Origin: a virus | Direction: 5' to 3' (one strand) | IMG/VR virus record: IMGVR_UViG_3300046168_000026 | Span: 1-64,000 of that record | Length of the DNA stretch: 64,000 nucleotides | Shown: positions 8,769 to 51,180 of the stretch, one piece after another | Layout of the letters: each line of letters starts with the position of its first letter | Numbering within the stretch: position 1 is the stretch's first letter | Translations under genes and position numbers: made by a program | The notes under the pieces: model-generated | The model's database searches: none | What the model was told of the DNA's origin: nothing | What the model saw: the letters and a program-made list of their open reading frames with translations, nothing else

Positions 8769-10118
8769 TTAGAAATCTAATTTAACTTTTATTAAAATTT
8801 CATTAGAGAAAGATTTCAATAGAGGTTTAGAAAGTTTAGCAATTGCCAACAACGAGTTGTCGTTATTATATAAACCAACACTTGTGATATAAGTTTTAGG
8901 GTCACCGATATAAGTAGTTTGTGCTAACTTACCTTCTGAACCTGAAATATATGTTGGGTTATTACTAAAGTTATACTCTGCATTTTTAGCTCTAACAAAA
9001 TAAAATGTAGACTTTATCTCTTCTTCATTTCTTGCTTGGAATCCGTTTGCAGCATCTGCAGCCGCAGCTCCACTAATTGCCGTAAACAATCTATTGTGGT
9101 TTTGATTATCTGCTTGTGTTCTAACTGTTCCTAAAGATGCTGATGTGTCGAGTAATGCTGCACTTAATACAATGATACCATGTTGTGGATAAACTTCACC
9201 GAATACTCTTGATGAGTTTTGGATTCCGTTTAATAATGAACCACTTACAATATTGTATTTAGTTTGTCTTGCGTTACCTGATTGGTCTCTATCACCACTA
9301 TCGTCAATTAACCTTAACATATCGTTTCCGCCAGAACCTGAGATACATAGTTCCCAATTTCCAGGGTCAAGTCTATCTTTTAATCTTGCTCTGTTTATTG
9401 CGATTGCGTAGACATCGTTTTGGTTCGTGTCATTAAATCTAAAGAACTTTTGAGAAGATGGTAATAAGACTTGTTGTAGTTGTGAGTAAATCGCTGATGA
9501 AGGTGAATCTTCATTCGTTCCTGCTGACCCACTACCAGCGTAGTGACCATATGAGATTGAGAACTGAGGTTCGTTTGTTGATACAGTCGGGTCGCCATTA
9601 TAGATTTCATAATAATATGCTTTTTGGGTAGCTGATTGAAATGACGATGTATGGAATACTGTTAGTTCACCACTATTACCACTCCACAATCCTCGTGTTA
9701 CTCTTTTAGTTCCGCCTTCTACAATATCTTCATTTGTAAATGCAGTATATACTTTACCACTACCGAAGTCGTATGCACCTGCTCCGATTACTGGTGTGTT
9801 GTTATTTTGGTTGTCGTCTCTTACTATATCTACAACTGGGTCTGTAACTACTACTGAACCACCACCTGTGTTTCCACTTGTTACACCGACAGATACTGAT
9901 GAACCACCGCCACCGCCGCCTCCATTTTGCATGAAGACTTGACCGCCGAGTCCGAGGTTACCATAATAAGGTTGGTCTCCACCCATGCCGTAGTTACCAA
10001 ATCCACCCTCAATTAATCCACCATTATAACCATTGAAGTTAATTCCCATGCCGCCGAAACCCAAGTTTCCTGAATTTCCGAATCCGTAACTACCACCATA
10101 ATTGTTAAATACTGCCAT
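8769..10118 (-). CDS. Virion structural protein (baseplate/tail region) with Gly-rich N-terminus
   Basis: C-terminal YITSVGLYNND...LLAIAKLSKP paralogous to 7033-8754; structural cluster context. Confidence 0.6.
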   Translation of the reverse strand: MAVFNNYGGSYGFGNSGNLGFGGMGINFNGYNGGLIEGGFGNYGMGGDQPYYGNLGLGGQVFMQNGGGGGGGSSVSVGVTSGNTGGGSVVVTDPVVDIVRDDNQNNNTPVIGAGAYDFGSGKVYTAFTNEDIVEGGTKRVTRGLWSGNSGELTVFHTSSFQSATQKAYYYEIYNGDPTVSTNEPQFSISYGHYAGSGSAGTNEDSPSSAIYSQLQQVLLPSSQKFFRFNDTNQNDVYAIAINRARLKDRLDPGNWELCISGSGGNDMLRLIDDSGDRDQSGNARQTKYNIVSGSLLNGIQNSSRVFGEVYPQHGIIVLSAALLDTSASLGTVRTQADNQNHNRLFTAISGAAAADAANGFQARNEEEIKSTFYFVRAKNAEYNFSNNPTYISGSEGKLAQTTYIGDPKTYITSVGLYNNDNSLLAIAKLSKPLLKSFSNEILIKVKLDF

Positions 10119-35878: not shown

Positions 35879-36229
35879 TTATAGTTTACCTTCGTCTCGT
35901 AGATTTTGACGAATTTTTGTAGCAGATATATCGTGAATATCGCCTGGTGGGATGTGTTCTATTATCTCGTAACCAACACCCCGACCATAGTTTACAGATT
36001 CAATATCAGGTATTATTATTATTCTAACTCTACCATCATGTATAAGGTCTTGAAGTTCTATATGTAGATTCTCGTATACTTCTTGTGGTGTATATGGTTG
36101 GTTCTCATTCGGTTCAACATCACGAATAGCAACACAAACATTCTTACCTTCGTTTAATCGTTGGTCGATTAACCATCGGTGTCCTTTATGCCAAGGTTGC
36201 CATCTACCTATGAATAGTGAGTACTTCAT
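35879..36229 (-). CDS. Small HxGH nucleotidyltransferase, candidate minimal ATP sulfurylase
   Basis: GRWQPWHKGH, ISATKIR; overlaps cysC. Confidence 0.7.
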   Translation of the reverse strand: MKYSLFIGRWQPWHKGHRWLIDQRLNEGKNVCVAIRDVEPNENQPYTPQEVYENLHIELQDLIHDGRVRIIIIPDIESVNYGRGVGYEIIEHIPPGDIHDISATKIRQNLRDEGKL

Positions 36230-36641
36230 TTAATGTTTGTATTGGTAGTTTATCATCGGTACATAACCATATATCATCTGTACCTATTTCCATTGCGTCT
36301 GTATGGTAGTGTTCTCGTCCTCTAACTTCTTGTGTAAATAAGTAAAACATTTTAGGGTTTAAATCTAATAGTTCATCTCGTACATCTTTGTATGGACCAA
36401 CAACTGATATGACTACATGAAAGTTTTTATGGTGAAGGAATCTGGCAATAGTAGTAACCTTTCTCATATTGTTCTTACGACCCTCTTCACTATAATCAGT
36501 ATTACTAAATACCTCTCTCATAAAATCACCATCGATATGTATTACAGGGTTACCAATGGTCTTATACTCGAAGTGTTCTTTTAAAAGTTTTGCTATTGTT
36601 GTCTTACCTGCGCCGGGCTGACCATAGAACCAATATATCAT
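36204..36641 (-). CDS. cysC: Adenylylsulfate (APS) kinase-like
   Basis: GQPGAGKTT, IDGD..R, YS.EGR..N, P...VRD; shortened lid. Confidence 0.75.
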   Translation of the reverse strand: MIYWFYGQPGAGKTTIAKLLKEHFEYKTIGNPVIHIDGDFMREVFSNTDYSEEGRKNNMRKVTTIARFLHHKNFHVVISVVGPYKDVRDELLDLNPKMFYLFTQEVRGREHYHTDAMEIGTDDIWLCTDDKLPIQTLNEVLTIHR

Positions 36642-37267
36642 TCGTACAACCAATTGTCAAGTTCTTCGACTTGAATTAAACCTAAGTCTTCTTCTCGATT
36701 TGCATCCATGATATTAAACTCATAAAATGGATTGTGTCTTTGTACGAGTGGTGTATCCATAAAGAAATTATTTTGAACAATACCAATACCCCAATCAGTA
36801 TCTACTACGCAAACCTTTAAATCTGTTCTACTTGTTCTTAACTCATAGATTGCTTTCCATACCGTACCATTCCATTCTCTATATTCACCATCCACCAAGT
36901 AGTCTTCTCTTGCCATAAAAGAATTTGGTGGATTACAATCGTGTAATAATATGTAACCATTTGGATTTAGATATCTAAGAGAATTGTGAATGTCTTTTTT
37001 TACCTGATAAGATTTGTGTAACCCATCTATGAATACAACATCGAATCTATCATTAGGTCTTCTATCATCCATGAATCTAAAAAACTCATCAGATGTCATC
37101 GTATGGTCAACAGGATTTTCTTCGAACTCAACGCCAGGGTCTACACCCTCTTTGTGTTCACATTGTACTTTGTCAAAACAATGAGTAGGGTCACATACAC
37201 CGATTTCAAGATACTTTTTAAAATCGTTCTCTTTTATTAGTTTGTTTATAATATCAAATCTATACAT
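36638..37267 (-). CDS. Class I SAM-dependent methyltransferase (Methyltransf_24-like)
   Basis: YLEIGV, GVDP, FIDGLH, LHDCNP; start re-called at MYRFD because the longer ORF runs through tRNA-Glu. Confidence 0.8.
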   Translation of the reverse strand: MYRFDIINKLIKENDFKKYLEIGVCDPTHCFDKVQCEHKEGVDPGVEFEENPVDHTMTSDEFFRFMDDRRPNDRFDVVFIDGLHKSYQVKKDIHNSLRYLNPNGYILLHDCNPPNSFMAREDYLVDGEYREWNGTVWKAIYELRTSRTDLKVCVVDTDWGIGIVQNNFFMDTPLVQRHNPFYEFNIMDANREEDLGLIQVEELDNWLYE

Positions 37268-37281
37268 AATAAAATTTATTG

Positions 37282-37353
37282 TAGCCCCTAGGAGAATCGA
37301 ACTCCTCTTTCCAGGATGAAAACCTGGCGTCCTAACCGATAGACGAAGGGGCC
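37282..37353 (-). tRNA. tRNA-Glu(TTC)
   Basis: GGCCCCT...CCAGG TT TTC AT CCTGG...TTCGATT...AGGGGCT A. Confidence 0.93.
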
Positions 37354-37363
37354 AGTATATTAG

Positions 37364-37435
37364 AGCGGAAAGGTGGAACTGCCCCACCATCTCCACATTG
37401 GTAATGTGGCGAGTTTCTTTTAACTCTTTTCCCGC
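37364..37435 (-). tRNA. Non-canonical tRNA-Gly-like RNA (anticodon ACC)
   Basis: GCGGGAA AA GAGTT AAAAGA AACTC G CCACA TTACCAA TGTGG AGAT GGTGG GGCAGTT CCACC TTTCCGC T. Confidence 0.75.
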
Positions 37436-37439
37436 TTAG

Positions 37440-37511
37440 AGCGGAAGGTTGGAACTGCCCCAACTCCTTTGTACTGGATGTACAACGACTTTCTTTTAAG
37501 TCTTCTCCCGC
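37440..37511 (-). tRNA. Non-canonical tRNA-Gly-like RNA (anticodon TCC)
   Basis: GCGGGAG AA GACTT AAAAGA AAGTC G TTGTA CATCCAG TACAA AGGA GTTGG GGCAGTT CCAAC CTTCCGC T. Confidence 0.75.
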
Positions 37512-37522
37512 GATTGTTTACA

Positions 37523-37553
37523 CAATATACAAAATAAAATTGACATGGCCAAA
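37523..37553 (-). promoter_or_regulatory. Host-type promoter directly upstream of the tRNA-Gly-like pair
   Basis: TTTGG...TGTATATTG ending about 11 nt before G1. Confidence 0.6.
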
Positions 37554-37560
37554 TTTTTAG

Positions 37561-37634
37561 TGGAGAATATCGGAGTCGAACCGATGACCTCTTCGGTGCA
37601 AGCGAAGCGCTCTAGCCATCTGAGCTAATTCCCC
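37561..37634 (-). tRNA. tRNA-Ala(TGC)
   Basis: GGGGAAT...CTTCG CT TGC AC CGAAG...TTCGACT; G3:U70 pair. Confidence 0.93.
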
Positions 37635-37643
37635 AATAAAGAT

Positions 37644-37913
37644 TTATCCTTTTAACAATTCCTTTTCATCCGATTCGGATACAGGAATGTCGTGACCATA
37701 TTCTTTACCAAAGTTTTTAGTAAGTACCGACAACTTGCCAGTTGCGGATTCTAACTTACCTAATAACTTATCGATTTCTTCTGTGTGTTGTGGATGTTCA
37801 CCTATCGCAACAGGTGATTCAAAGTAGATTGATAATGTCGCCCTTGCGTCCATTATTTCTGCAGTATACTTTGCCTCTAAGGCTTGGTATAATCTTCTTG
37901 ATAATTTACTCAT
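37644..37913 (-). CDS. Conserved phage hypothetical protein
   Basis: Y...PVAIGEHPQ motif common in T4-like phages. Confidence 0.6.
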   Translation of the reverse strand: MSKLSRRLYQALEAKYTAEIMDARATLSIYFESPVAIGEHPQHTEEIDKLLGKLESATGKLSVLTKNFGKEYGHDIPVSESDEKELLKG

Positions 37914-37961
37914 AACAAATTTGTTTTTAATAGTTAACTTTATATAAATATAATTTTATTT

Positions 37962-38261
37962 TTAATCAACGCTATATAGATTATATTTTAGCGTTATCTC
38001 TTCATCACTTGGGATTGGTCTAAGTGTAAACAACATTAGATTCCCATCGATATCTTGTCTTACTTCACAATTGGGAGTATCACTATGATTTATGAATCCA
38101 CCCAATGGTGTTCTGATATATCCGTTTTCAAACTTATCGTTAGGTATATGAGTGACTCCTATGAATCTTGCGTGTGGTAACGACTCGGTTGAATACAATC
38201 CTAACCCTTCAATTTCAGATTGTTTAATTGTAACTTCTTTTGGTAGTGGTCTATATGTCAT
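37962..38261 (-). CDS. SET-domain protein
   Basis: S.IEGLGLY, FINHSDTPNC, EEITLKY. Confidence 0.85.
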   Translation of the reverse strand: MTYRPLPKEVTIKQSEIEGLGLYSTESLPHARFIGVTHIPNDKFENGYIRTPLGGFINHSDTPNCEVRQDIDGNLMLFTLRPIPSDEEITLKYNLYSVD

Positions 38262-39009
38262 GTGGTTGGGTTAATGAGTTATTATACATCTCTGTTCTGT
38301 ATTGTACACCGACACATTCATTCAATGCGAATGTAATCAAGTCTTTTTCAAAGATATAGTTGAGGTCTGTTCGTGGTGTTTCACAATATAATGCAGGTAG
38401 GAATTCGTCAATAACAAATATCATTTTTTTATACTTAGCTAAATGATTCTCTACTAACTTTTTAATTCCGTTCTTACTTAACAACAATGCGTGAGTTTGA
38501 TATGAGTAGCCAGGTTTACATATCATATCATCTATTGGAGTATCTTGAACACCTTCAAATCCTGTTTGAAGTAATCTACCTAAATAAAATAAATCATAGT
38601 TCATAGATTTTACTTTATCAAGTTGTGACCAATCCATAGGTTTTTCAAATACAAAGTCATCTTCATATACAAGTATATTATCGTATCCATTCTTATATGC
38701 ATCTTCCCATATAGCGATATGAGATAGTGTACATCCAATCTCACCCAATGTGACATCTCTTTGCCAGTAACGATTAGCATTATCTTTTACATAGACATCA
38801 CTTGTATTTAAGTTCCAATCTTTATATGCTTCAATCCCCATCAATTGCATATGATGAGTTGTCAACTTCCTACCATCAATACCAAGTACTTCAAATGGAA
38901 CTTCATGTGGTAGTCCAACCTTGTCTATCTCTTTTAGAATAGATGCGATGTGTTCATCACTCCAATCTAAACTAACAATGTATATTTTATCTATCGCCTT
39001 TTCGGTCAT
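38251..39009 (-). CDS. Glycosyltransferase family 25
   Basis: IDG, GEIGCTLSHIAIW, VYEDD, IDEFL. Confidence 0.85.
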   Translation of the reverse strand: MTEKAIDKIYIVSLDWSDEHIASILKEIDKVGLPHEVPFEVLGIDGRKLTTHHMQLMGIEAYKDWNLNTSDVYVKDNANRYWQRDVTLGEIGCTLSHIAIWEDAYKNGYDNILVYEDDFVFEKPMDWSQLDKVKSMNYDLFYLGRLLQTGFEGVQDTPIDDMICKPGYSYQTHALLLSKNGIKKLVENHLAKYKKMIFVIDEFLPALYCETPRTDLNYIFEKDLITFALNECVGVQYRTEMYNNSLTQPHDI

Positions 39010-39112
39010 GTAACTCCTGTTGTAGTTTCTGAATTTGTAGTTTGTCCTTTTGAGTTTGGGGTCTTTTCATTTTCAACTCAAGAATCTTCGCAATGATTTC
39101 TTTATCACTCAT

Positions 39113-39463
39113 TTAGTTTTTCTTTTTTAATTGTGTTAGTATATCAGTTACAAACTCACCTGCGTAAACCTTAGAACCAACACTCCACTTAGTGTTAAAT
39201 GTTTCAGCCACAGTCAACGCATCCCCACTTCTATATTGTTTGTCGGTTTTAAAATCATAGATGGTAAAACATGCGCCGTCCATTTCTCTTTTAAAGACCC
39301 ATTGTTTTTGAACCTTACCATCAGCACTTGGTTCATTGAATGTCGGTTCACCGAATGCTTGAATTAATTGTTTATAAGACCATCCAATAAGATAATCCTT
39401 TTTACTCGTCCCATCACATAAGGTGGACGCTAGTTGTTTGTCTCGAATTAAATTGTATTTCAT
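39113..39463 (-). CDS. Conserved phage hypothetical protein
   Basis: Y..L...FGEP...DGKV..QW...FTIYD pattern. Confidence 0.55.
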   Translation of the reverse strand: MKYNLIRDKQLASTLCDGTSKKDYLIGWSYKQLIQAFGEPTFNEPSADGKVQKQWVFKREMDGACFTIYDFKTDKQYRSGDALTVAETFNTKWSVGSKVYAGEFVTDILTQLKKKN

Positions 39464-39540
39464 AGTGTGTTTTTTTTAATTTTTTCGTGTGAAAAGGAAA
39501 CTTCGTTTCCACCTTGCACCTTTGCACCTTGGCGGCTTAG

Positions 39541-39771
39541 TCACTTTTTCATATTGTCGAACCACGATTTCCAAAAGTTGTACCAAAATATCCATGCCGT
39601 TATCGGCCATAGAAGGAACGACCAAACCCTTTGTTCGTTTGAGGGGTTGTAAGGTTGACTCAATGCTCCCTTTCTATCTGCCCAATCCAATATAAGATTT
39701 ATTATGATTGTACTGATACATCCTACTATGATATACATAGATATATAATCAAATGTTGTTAATGTGTTCAT
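39541..39771 (-). CDS. Small membrane protein
   Basis: Two hydrophobic helices, LLWP. Confidence 0.5.
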   Translation of the reverse strand: MNTLTTFDYISMYIIVGCISTIIINLILDWADRKGALSQPYNPSNEQRVWSFLLWPITAWIFWYNFWKSWFDNMKK

Positions 39772-39893
39772 ATTATTAATTTAGTTATCTATAATTATCT
39801 GAATCGGATATAGTTGTACATAGGTTCTTTTGGATTACTCGTAGGTACGATACCTTGTCTATACGCTGGAGTATTAGTATCATATCTTTGAAT

Positions 39894-40037
39894 TCACCAA
39901 AATTTATACCATGGTTTCGGTCTCAACTCAATCTCATCTATCAACCACTTCAATCTCTCACCTGCCATCATTGAACAATCCGATTCACATAACTCTGCGA
40001 TTTGTTTCAATTGTTTTACTATCTTACTATTATCCAT
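39894..40037 (-). CDS. 47-aa protein ending KPWYKFW
   Basis: Manual translation MDNSKIVKQ...RPKPWYKFW. Confidence 0.45.
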   Translation of the reverse strand: MDNSKIVKQLKQIAELCESDCSMMAGERLKWLIDEIELRPKPWYKFW

Positions 40038-40536
40038 GTGATGATGAGTATGCCGAGTTCGTTGCTTTCTCTAACAACCAACTTGATGATTGAACTTTAT
40101 CTCCAAGATTCCATACCATATCTACTCCCATAGAATTACAATAGTCCTCTTCTGGTACATTACCTTGTCCTCTATCACCACCATTTCCAAATGCCATAGG
40201 TAGTTTATCACCAATGAATCTATCATTAGTTCTATCTTTATAATCTCTACGGAAGATATTCACCGCAGAATAAATTCCATCACACACAGATTTATCACCT
40301 GCACTTCTTGGATTACATATAATAGTTTTAGTTACTCCCTTTATACGAGACATAATATATTCTCGTTCTTTCTCATCCATAAAAGGTTTCCCTTTCTTTT
40401 GAGTTAACCAATGGTCGTTATTTAGAATCACCCAAACTTCATCTGCCATCTCATGAGCTCTCTCAATCATTTCGAGATGTCCTTTATGTACGGGGTCAAA
40501 ACCACCACTAACTAACATTACTTTAAACTTCTTCAT
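40030..40536 (-). CDS. Cytidylyltransferase-family protein
   Basis: SGGFDPVHKGH, NGGDR, KVQSSS. Confidence 0.85.
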   Translation of the reverse strand: MKKFKVMLVSGGFDPVHKGHLEMIERAHEMADEVWVILNNDHWLTQKKGKPFMDEKEREYIMSRIKGVTKTIICNPRSAGDKSVCDGIYSAVNIFRRDYKDRTNDRFIGDKLPMAFGNGGDRGQGNVPEEDYCNSMGVDMVWNLGDKVQSSSWLLEKATNSAYSSSHG

Positions 40537-47640: not shown

Positions 47641-47979
47641 TTAGATAAAACTTTTAAATAAAGTTGAGGTGTGACCTTCTTCCCACCCTTTATCTTTATA
47701 AAACTGATGTGTAGTAGGAAGGCAATATGTAATTACTTTATATCCTTTTAGATTTTCTTGACACCATTCCCATCTTACATCCCATAACATTTTGTAAATA
47801 CCATTACCTCGGTACTTCTCTTCTACATATGCGTTTGCGAACTTGATGGTATTGTCAGATAAGAATAATAGAGAGTTCCAACCAATAGCTTGATTGTTAT
47901 ATAACGCAATCCATCCACACTCGTCCTTCGGAGTGGGTACAGACTCGGGCAACTTGTAGGGTACTATCGTTATATTCAT
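47641..47979 (-). CDS. GNAT acetyltransferase
   Basis: YV...YRGNGI, FYKDKGW. Confidence 0.75.
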   Translation of the reverse strand: MNITIVPYKLPESVPTPKDECGWIALYNNQAIGWNSLLFLSDNTIKFANAYVEEKYRGNGIYKMLWDVRWEWCQENLKGYKVITYCLPTTHQFYKDKGWEEGHTSTLFKSFI

Positions 47980-49998: not shown

Positions 49999-51180
49999 TT
50001 TTCAACAAAGTTATTAACATTATACAGAATGAGCTAGGAATAAGTGGGCTAATTCAGTAGAATACTGGCTCAGAGGGGACTTTCCTATGGACTAAAAAAC
50101 CGACCCCGGTATAAGAACGGCTCACAGGCGACTGTAACTTGCTGATTACCAGTGGATTACACGAAAATACCCGCCCCCCTCGCTCAGTCACATGCGTTCC
50201 TTCGCTCCGTAGGCCTGTGATTTCCTCGTCCACTTCCCCTACCTCATCTGGCTCAGAGGCCTGAATAGGGTTAAATAAGGTTAAATTCTGCCTTGGGTGT
50301 CTCTCCCTATACCTATGTATCCGTATATACTCCCCTTTTTAGCTACTTTTTTTTTATATCACTTTTGCTTTTAGTGTCACCGCAGGGTTTTTTAAACCAG
50401 GCCCCCCCATAAAGATACGAAAAATATTTTAAATGGCCAAATAAAAAGTGTTAAATCGGCAATAAAGTTATCAACATGACACGATGTCAGTTGCGTTGAG
50501 GGCAAAGTTATTAACAATTTTATTAACAATTTAAAGTTATTAACAATTAAATGCTAACAGTATGACATAATGTCCGACTTATCAGGCGGTGACATAACCC
50601 CTTGAGCGTCAACGCTTTAGACCCCTTTAGTTAAAGTAACCCTCGAACATGACATAATGACCGAATTTTTATGGCTAAAAAGGGCAAAATACCCCCTAAA
50701 AATACTTTTCCCTCAGGAAATTTTGGTTTGCCGCGAGAAACGGACTTGTGCCTGTCTATAATTGTGGTAAATTTAGACCCATAGGGGTTATCTAAGTAGA
50801 GTTTAACAGAATTGTGGGAAATGTTAATGATTTAGCGCTGAAATCCCTTTACCTCATCTTATCCCTCATCTTCCAATAAAGAAATAGACGCATTAAATAA
50901 GGTTAAAATTATATGGTGTTTACCATAAAGTGGGAAAAAGTGGTAGAAAAGGGTGGAAAAGTCCACATTTATTTGTCGAGATAATGGAATAGTCGGTTCA
51001 TTACGAAATAGAACGCTAAAAGGATTCCGATAAACTTAAGTAGTAGAATCATACTGATATAAGTAGGTAGAAGAGCATAAAAAAAGTCCTCAAAGACTTG
51101 TCTGAGAACTTGTTTCGATGACTTATATGAGTAAATATTAGGGAATTTTACCCTTGTTAAAAGTTCGTGGGTAATTAAGG
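49999..51180. other. About 1.2 kb non-coding, motif-dense region; candidate origin, packaging site or decoy locus
   Basis: No ORF of 60 aa or more; six TTWTYAACA 9-mers, three TGACA-N3-TG(T/A)C, two IHF-like palindromes, an AAAGTGG 10-bp-period array, C-rich to G-rich switch. Confidence 0.55.
50409..50455 (-). promoter_or_regulatory. Host-type promoter firing into the non-coding G-rich tract
   Basis: TTTAACAC...TTTGG...CGTATCTTTA then GGGGGGG. Confidence 0.55.

Follow-up and report, generated by a model that had tools for sequence, protein, structure and literature searches.

Two tandem tRNA-Gly-like RNAs in the phage DNA analysed here probably act as private, non-ribosomal glycyl donors for hypermodification of the phage DNA, as judged from their sequence conservation and their co-inheritance with genes for Mom-type and DruA-like GNATs. 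The analysed stretch (the window) comprises 64,000 nt and is the first 64 kb, with the same numbering, of a marine phage genome of 176,264 bp (G000; 34.5% GC, 97% complete). The initial annotation had suggested RNAs that are charged but donate their glycine outside the ribosome, in a modification pathway of the phage, and the core of this proposal is supported by the conservation of the RNA family and by its joint loss with tRNA-dependent GNATs. The RNAs, their promoter and their neighbours are as follows.

37440..37511, minus strand: RNA 1, tRNA-Gly-like, anticodon TCC (loop CAUCCAG), 72 nt, no encoded CCA
37436..37439, minus strand: spacer between RNA 1 and RNA 2, 4 nt, CTAA
37364..37435, minus strand: RNA 2, tRNA-Gly-like, anticodon ACC (loop UUACCAA), 72 nt, no encoded CCA
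37522..37553, minus strand: promoter of the Bacteroidota sigma-A type (TTTG, 20 nt, TAnnTTG-like box)
37560..37634, minus strand: canonical tRNA-Ala(TGC), next gene upstream, also present in RNA-negative relatives
37281..37353, minus strand: canonical tRNA-Glu(TTC), next gene downstream, also present in RNA-negative relatives
35879-40536: surroundings of the tRNA cluster, with GT25, SET-domain, Methyltransf_24, APS kinase and cytidylyltransferase-like genes, patchy in relatives

The two RNAs are real tRNA-Gly-like cloverleaves. Each folds with stems of 7/4/5/5 bp (z = -3.8 for RNA 1 and -4.4 for RNA 2, relative to 200 shuffles), in agreement with the two 72-nt cloverleaves 4 nt apart that the initial annotation had described. 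Its further observations were reproduced as well: both RNAs keep G1:C72, C2:G71, G3:C70, C35, C36 and U73, both have A8/U14 and the T loop GGCAGUU, and they differ from each other by compensatory changes stem by stem. The D loop had to be corrected, as G18 is lost but G19, also thought to be missing, is kept (A18-G19 in standard numbering). The anticodon loops can indeed zip shut, with the 32:38 pair closing the loop to 5 nt. RNA 1 has C32, A33 and G38, allowing a 6-bp anticodon stem, and RNA 2 has U32-A38 where the RNA family has C32-G38, a compensatory change by which the 5-nt loop of the ACC copy is likewise closed.

Standard searches miss both RNAs. Default ARAGORN called neither of them, the Rfam tRNA model scored the ACC copy alone and at 23.6 bits, under the 29-bit cut-off, and Rfam families other than tRNA gave no score above the gathering threshold. 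RNA 1 reached 98.7 bits with our model R1, which was partly built from RNA 1 itself. An overlap of RNA 2 with a reading frame was considered and discarded: a mechanically called ORF (36638-37396) enters RNA 2, but the methyltransferase that it contains starts at the ATG at 37264.

The element TTTG in the promoter upstream of RNA 1 is the -33 element of Bacteroidota sigma-A-type promoters. The second box matches the -7 box of flavobacterial sigma-A, whose consensus is TAnnTTTG (PMC9723704). The motif occurs in 19 minus-strand (coding-strand) copies in the genome, with 0.45 being expected by shuffling, and promoters of this class also precede MomA, MomB, the DNA polymerase and the clamp operon. 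The initial annotation was thus right that a promoter lies at 37553, but this is a local promoter of a common class and not a special one. The Gp23 capsid protein is most similar to that of Microcystis phage Mel-JY01 (57%), followed by those of an uncultured jumbo phage (53%), of Flavobacterium phage Immuto (52%) and, at 37%, of Rhodothermus phage RM378, which fits a Far-T4-like phage. The Far-T4 group has been tied to Bacteroidota (PMC7198788), and two lines, this Gp23 affinity and the flavobacterial-type promoter, suggest that the host is probably a member of the Bacteroidota. A GC-rich stretch without long ORF (window 50050-50410, minus strand) lies directly behind another promoter of the same class (50441); it has no Rfam match and is a possible ncRNA or origin.

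Homologues of the RNAs were identified by pattern scans, one IMG/VR scan yielding 13 contigs and another 44 stretches. At least 119 metagenome stretches matched, some of them by chance; a separate, loose pattern gave mostly chance matches. The family comprises more than 100 variants from aquatic metagenomes. Cultured phages gave no match, and none of the three pattern matches in GTDB genomes folds as a tRNA. In an alignment of 32 diverse members 98% of the cells are paired and double changes occur in 13 of 24 pairs; the covariation score was reached by none of 500 shuffles, and slid registers came nowhere near either. This double-sided covariation across the family bears out the earlier view that the structure is under selection. 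At 32:38, 31 of the 32 members have C-G and the ACC copy of the window has U-A, leaving the loop closed in all 32. Among 47 variants found with the model, G1, G3, A8, G10, U14, C35, C36, A37, G45, U51, A63, G71, C72 and U73 never change; U (36) or A (11) stands at position 34, and position 33 varies freely (A 27, U 18, G 1, C 1). The odd bases A8/U14 that the initial annotation had pointed out are kept by the homologues, in 47/47.

The published set of glycine identity and folding elements includes G1:C72, C2:G71, C35, C36, U73 and G10-Y25:G45 (PMC9976931). In the RNA family these elements are either invariant or present in 45-46 of the 47 variants. Translating tRNAs almost always have U8/A14, G18, U33 and a TΨC loop. 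Here the set U8:A14, G18-G19, U33 and U54-U55-C56 is disrupted throughout, with A8/U14 in 47/47 variants, A18, mostly A at position 33, and G54-G55. The affinity for EF-Tu was predicted from a published table of T-stem pairs (PMC3239215), giving -9.5 or -8.1 kcal/mol for the family, whose weak T-stem (G49-C65, U51-A63) is not predicted to bind tightly. The same table gives a mean of -10.8 kcal/mol for bacterial tRNA-Gly(UCC) and -9.5 kcal/mol for the staphylococcal non-proteinogenic tRNA (PMC3239215). Ordinary tRNA-Gly is present in many carriers of the RNA family, and the tRNA-Gly(GCC) of these phages is predicted at -10.1 to -11.2 kcal/mol. The RNAs are thus predicted to bind EF-Tu weakly; a weak T-stem is, however, also found in some otherwise normal-looking phage tRNA-Gly(TCC), which counts against the donor reading.

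The genes that accompany the RNAs through the phage group lie outside the window, next to the replication genes, and related loci have swappable slots at the corresponding places.

G000 91890-93080 (L026:3891-5081), minus strand: DruA-like GNAT (DruA/DUF4338), between the putative clamp and clamp loader
G000 96373-97161 (L026:8374-9162), minus strand: MomA, just upstream of the DNA polymerase
G000 97148-97900 (L026:9149-9901), minus strand: MomB, in tandem with MomA
L236:13277-14530, 8788-9969; L182:13919-15409; L217:13304-14935; L218:13294-14940; L246:13668-15152: swappable slots flanking polymerase and clamp in related loci

The RNA is present in all 12 long records that have polymerase-linked Mom genes and the tRNA cluster (G000, G002, G005, G006, G016-G020, G060, G062 and G086), these records being related and several of them near-identical. 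Neither G035 (94% complete) nor G081 (93%) has Mom, DruA or the RNA, although both retain other tRNAs, and the polymerase of G035 is 86% identical, closer than those of most RNA-positive records. When all 258 minus-strand ORFs were profiled without bias, only MomA, MomB and the DruA-like gene were found in 4/4 RNA-positive and 0/2 RNA-negative near-complete relatives, the MomB match of G086 being a cross-match to the single Mom of that genome. Counting RNA against Mom (12/0/0/2) gave a Fisher p of 0.011, uncorrected for kinship. The RNA-negative genomes amount to these two near-complete ones plus one inferred, with fragments elsewhere. A probable third joint loss is suggested by a pair of contigs that come from a single sample, do not overlap and are both nearest to G018, one of them lacking Mom/DruA and the other the RNA. 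An exact polymerase look-up for longer Mom-negative contigs returned none over 51 kb. Some RNA-positive lineages (G086) have no MomB, so that the more constant partner is MomA or the DruA-like protein.

Several observations count against a strict coupling. The Mom and DruA-like genes are about 55 kb away from the RNAs rather than adjoining them, the copy numbers of RNA and Mom are unequal, and G074-G076 carry a third Mom type without the RNA, the polymerase region of these records being missing. The Mom-carrying Polaribacter phage P12002L gave no match to the RNA model, which, together with the use of host tRNA-Gly by Mu Mom, indicates that a private tRNA is not required. In the named records W01/W02 the RNA-model search scored no candidates, so that absence there carries little weight. 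The genes around the tRNA cluster, from which the initial annotation had drawn its pathway context, were rejected as partners: the presence of GT25, Methyltransf_24, CysC, cytidylyltransferases and SET does not track the RNA, and GT25, methyltransferase and CysC are present in RNA-negative G035 and absent from RNA-positive G086 and G060. A small GNAT (47641-47979) was likewise rejected, as among six relatives it occurs only in RNA-negative G035.

The initial annotation had advised a search for Fem/GNAT/MprF-like transferases; FemAB, MprF (LPG_synthase_C) and Acetyltransf_6 gave no match in the 97% complete G000 genome, whereas MomA and MomB emerged on reading the genome as a whole. Both belong to the Mom family (PHROG E 7e-46 and 6e-53; Pfam E 3e-47 and 2e-45; also matching PDB 8bv8) and both keep the equivalents of R111 and S124 of Mu Mom. 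These residues are needed by Mu Mom (PMC13219725), which moves glycine from Gly-tRNA-Gly to adenine N6 and works with ordinary host tRNA-Gly, all three isoacceptors being used. The DruA-like protein has a clear GNAT fold and shares ~10-13% identity with Mu Mom; structure searches ranked Mom first in both cases (Foldseek E 1.2e-3; VIA Z 10.5, rmsd 4.0, 173 aligned), with other GNATs within 1 Z unit.

In ~80 related polymerase loci Mom and DruA occur together in 44 and are both missing in 18, with no discordant locus, and the Mom-less state is spread over about eight separate lineages. In several lineages without Mom and DruA the same slots carry TAGT glycosyltransferase, ABC-ATPase-GNAT or DNA-methyltransferase-like genes. 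These replacement genes suggest that the Mom/DruA slots carry interchangeable DNA-modification enzymes. The slots also hold proteins of 494-548 aa without Pfam match, which are candidates for DNA-modification enzymes of a new type. An extra Mom-like gene (L176:12523-12972) lies right after the polymerase in a strain 99% identical in polymerase, and this third Mom type looks mobile. In G000, GATC and ACGT are practically missing (observed/expected 0.00) and CTAG is rare (0.09); the avoidance of ACGT is not seen in G018, G006 and G086, and genomes with and without Mom could not be told apart by their avoidance of palindromes.

On the reading that we favour, donor RNAs for DNA hypermodification, the RNAs would be transcribed from a host-sigma promoter of the class common to the replication and Mom genes, excised and provided with CCA by host enzymes (no match to a CCA-adding enzyme was found in the G000 genome), and glycylated by host GlyRS via G1:C72, C2:G71, C35, C36, U73 and G10-C25:G45. 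The weak T-stem, the lack of a TΨC loop and of G18, and the closed 5-nt anticodon loop without fixed U33 would exclude them from EF-Tu and the ribosome. The resulting free Gly-tRNA pool would feed the replisome-linked Mom-fold GNATs, that is, MomA and/or the DruA-like protein, and MomB where present. These enzymes may glycylate bases of the new phage DNA, most likely at adenine N6 as Mu Mom does, which would protect the DNA from host nucleases, the donor RNAs sparing the tRNA pool of translation. Far more tentatively, the Mom-fold enzymes, including DruA/DUF4338, might prefer the phage RNAs over host tRNA-Gly and produce a base modification beyond the 6-NcmdA of Mu, a step that we consider possible but doubtful.

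Other functions of the RNAs have to be weighed against this. They could be glycyl donors for a product other than N6-modified adenine, with DruA/DUF4338 or a Mom paralogue glycylating another base, RNA or protein. The perfect linkage of the Mom and DruA-like genes, because of which the profile is unable to separate the two, leaves room for this, as do the low identity of the DruA-like protein to Mu Mom and the fact that we found no report in the literature of an activity for the DruA/DUF4338 family. However, the DruA-like slot holds DNA-modifying enzyme types in other lineages and MomA and MomB keep the essential residues of Mu Mom, making another acceptor unlikely. Somewhat less likely still are decoys, the alternative offered by the initial annotation, or regulators that soak up tRNA-cutting defence nucleases or GlyRS and have no donor role. 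The rapid change of the anticodon stems and of positions 33/34 within a conserved shape would suit such a function, as the RNAs could thereby evade anticodon nucleases or bait them. But it gives no reason for the joint loss with Mom/DruA genes 55 kb away, and one would expect the bait for a nuclease to resemble an ordinary anticodon loop rather than a closed one without U33.

A role in translation is about as improbable as that of a decoy. The RNAs would then be odd but working tRNAs, with U34/A34 superwobbling over the GGN box, that refill a tRNA-Gly pool drained by Mom or needed for glycine-rich, collagen-like phage proteins. The anticodons ACC and TCC match the dominant Gly codons of the phage genome (GGT 2403 and GGA 979 of 3810), no ordinary tRNA-Gly was found in G000, and the refilling of a drained pool also predicts co-loss with Mom. 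Against this, the family as a whole has given up U33, U8:A14, G18 and U54-U55, all its members have a weak T-stem, the 32:38 pair closes the anticodon loop in 32/32 members, and many carriers have a normal tRNA-Gly beside the RNA; moreover, staphylococcal tRNAs with a 6-bp anticodon stem and an altered T loop do not translate (PMC7826273). That the RNAs are degenerating tRNA pseudogenes, as their being missed by ARAGORN and scoring below the Rfam cut-off might suggest, has next to no probability and is refuted by the double-sided covariation in all four stems, in line with the fixed length and the invariant odd bases in dozens of lineages.

The donor reading has a close parallel in the staphylococcal tRNA-Gly(UCC) NP1-NP3, which are glycyl donors for FmhB/FemA/FemB (PMC7826273; PMC3239215). 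Both groups keep glycine identity, have an altered T loop, a 6-bp anticodon stem with 5-nt loop and a weak 51-63 pair, share a predicted EF-Tu affinity of -9.5 kcal/mol, and occur in several copies, often next to a normal tRNA-Gly. The RNAs described here, however, are phage-encoded and have A8/U14, whereas the staphylococcal RNAs keep a thiolated U8; they have U51-A63 instead of A51-U63, lack a fixed U33 and include ACC anticodons; and the phage genome is without a Fem enzyme, the presumed acceptor being DNA and not peptidoglycan. By analogy, the phage RNAs may thus work like the staphylococcal ones but outside that lineage. From canonical bacterial tRNA-Gly (RF00005), with which they share the cloverleaf, G1-C72, C35, C36, U73 and G10-Y25:G45, they differ by the lack of U8/A14, G18, a fixed U33 and a UUCRA T loop, scoring under the Rfam cut-off.

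On the enzyme side the parallel is phage Mu Mom (PF25680, PDB 8bv8), which has two full-length homologues here with equivalents of R111 and S124 and whose known co-substrate is Gly-tRNA-Gly (PMC13219725). Mu has a single, late-expressed Mom that scavenges ordinary host tRNA-Gly, and no phage-encoded donor tRNA is mentioned in the accessible part of the paper. The present phage, in contrast, has two Moms and a Mom-fold DruA protein in a replisome cluster under host-sigma promoters, covarying with private tRNAs. The Dehalococcoides ssrA islands contain a tRNA-Gly-like 'pseudo-tRNA' inside a mom homologue, published in 2011 without function (PMC3146451). This RNA is also conserved, tRNA-Gly-like, physically tied to mom and missed by annotators, and its anticodon 'DCC' includes ACC and TCC; unlike the phage RNAs it is 76 nt long and lies within the mom gene itself, on an integrative island, the likeness being drawn from its description.

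We found no report in the literature of phage-encoded donor tRNAs for Mom, the Dehalococcoides RNA being the nearest precedent (PMC3146451). What appears new here, on sequence evidence, is a full-length RNA family far from the enzymes and linked to them by co-loss, not adjacency. As of 2020, staphylococci were the only organisms in which non-ribosomal tRNAs dedicated to wall synthesis had been detected (PMC7826273), and the use of Gly-tRNA by Mom, from the host, was established only recently (preprint 2023, paper 2026). If the donor reading is correct, EF-Tu-averse phage tRNAs co-inherited with DNA-modifying GNATs would avoid competition with translation while a 176-kb genome is modified during replication, and they would be natural scaffolds of GlyRS-chargeable, ribosome-excluded tRNA. 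Should Mom-fold/DUF4338 enzymes also prefer the phage RNAs and install a base modification beyond that of Mu, DUF4338 would gain a biochemical function, non-ribosomal tRNAs would comprise a second natural class that acts in trans from far away in the genome, and the phages would supply their own glycyl-transfer pathway at the replisome, orthogonal to translation. A widespread RNA gene of abundant aquatic Far-T4 phages escapes annotators, and the RNAs would be ready substrates for probing Mom specificity and DUF4338/DruA activity.

Several related RNAs deviate from the family. Those at L499:1501-1572 (= L425:4297-4368) and L449:5152-5223 agree with the family in acceptor, stems and A8/U14 but have UUCAAAU or UGCGAUU as T loop; these apparent intermediates suggest that the family came from a normal tRNA-Gly. 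G022 and G023 have a more distant version scoring 39-44 bits, a shorter Gly-like RNA of 69-70 nt with T loop GGCAGCA (L264:1501-1570 in G022; L263:1501-1569 in G023, just after a GOLLD RNA). Both phages are Mom- and DruA-positive, with the three GNAT genes adjacent to one another. A sister clade keeps a second odd tRNA-Gly(TCC) in ~14 loci, often beside a normal tRNA-Gly (L403:6989-7059, L404:6667-6738, L416:3053-3123, L420:6771-6841), in which the D and T loops are normal, the anticodon stem contains two mismatches and the T-stem is very weak (G50-U64, U51-A63; predicted -8.1 kcal/mol). Several of these records carry the third Mom type (~212 aa), and this tRNA is possibly another non-ribosomal donor. 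Finally, several Mom-domain matches in long frames are accompanied by three unusual tRNA-Gly-like genes in the uncultured jumbo phage LR756508.1 (484 kb; L484-L486).
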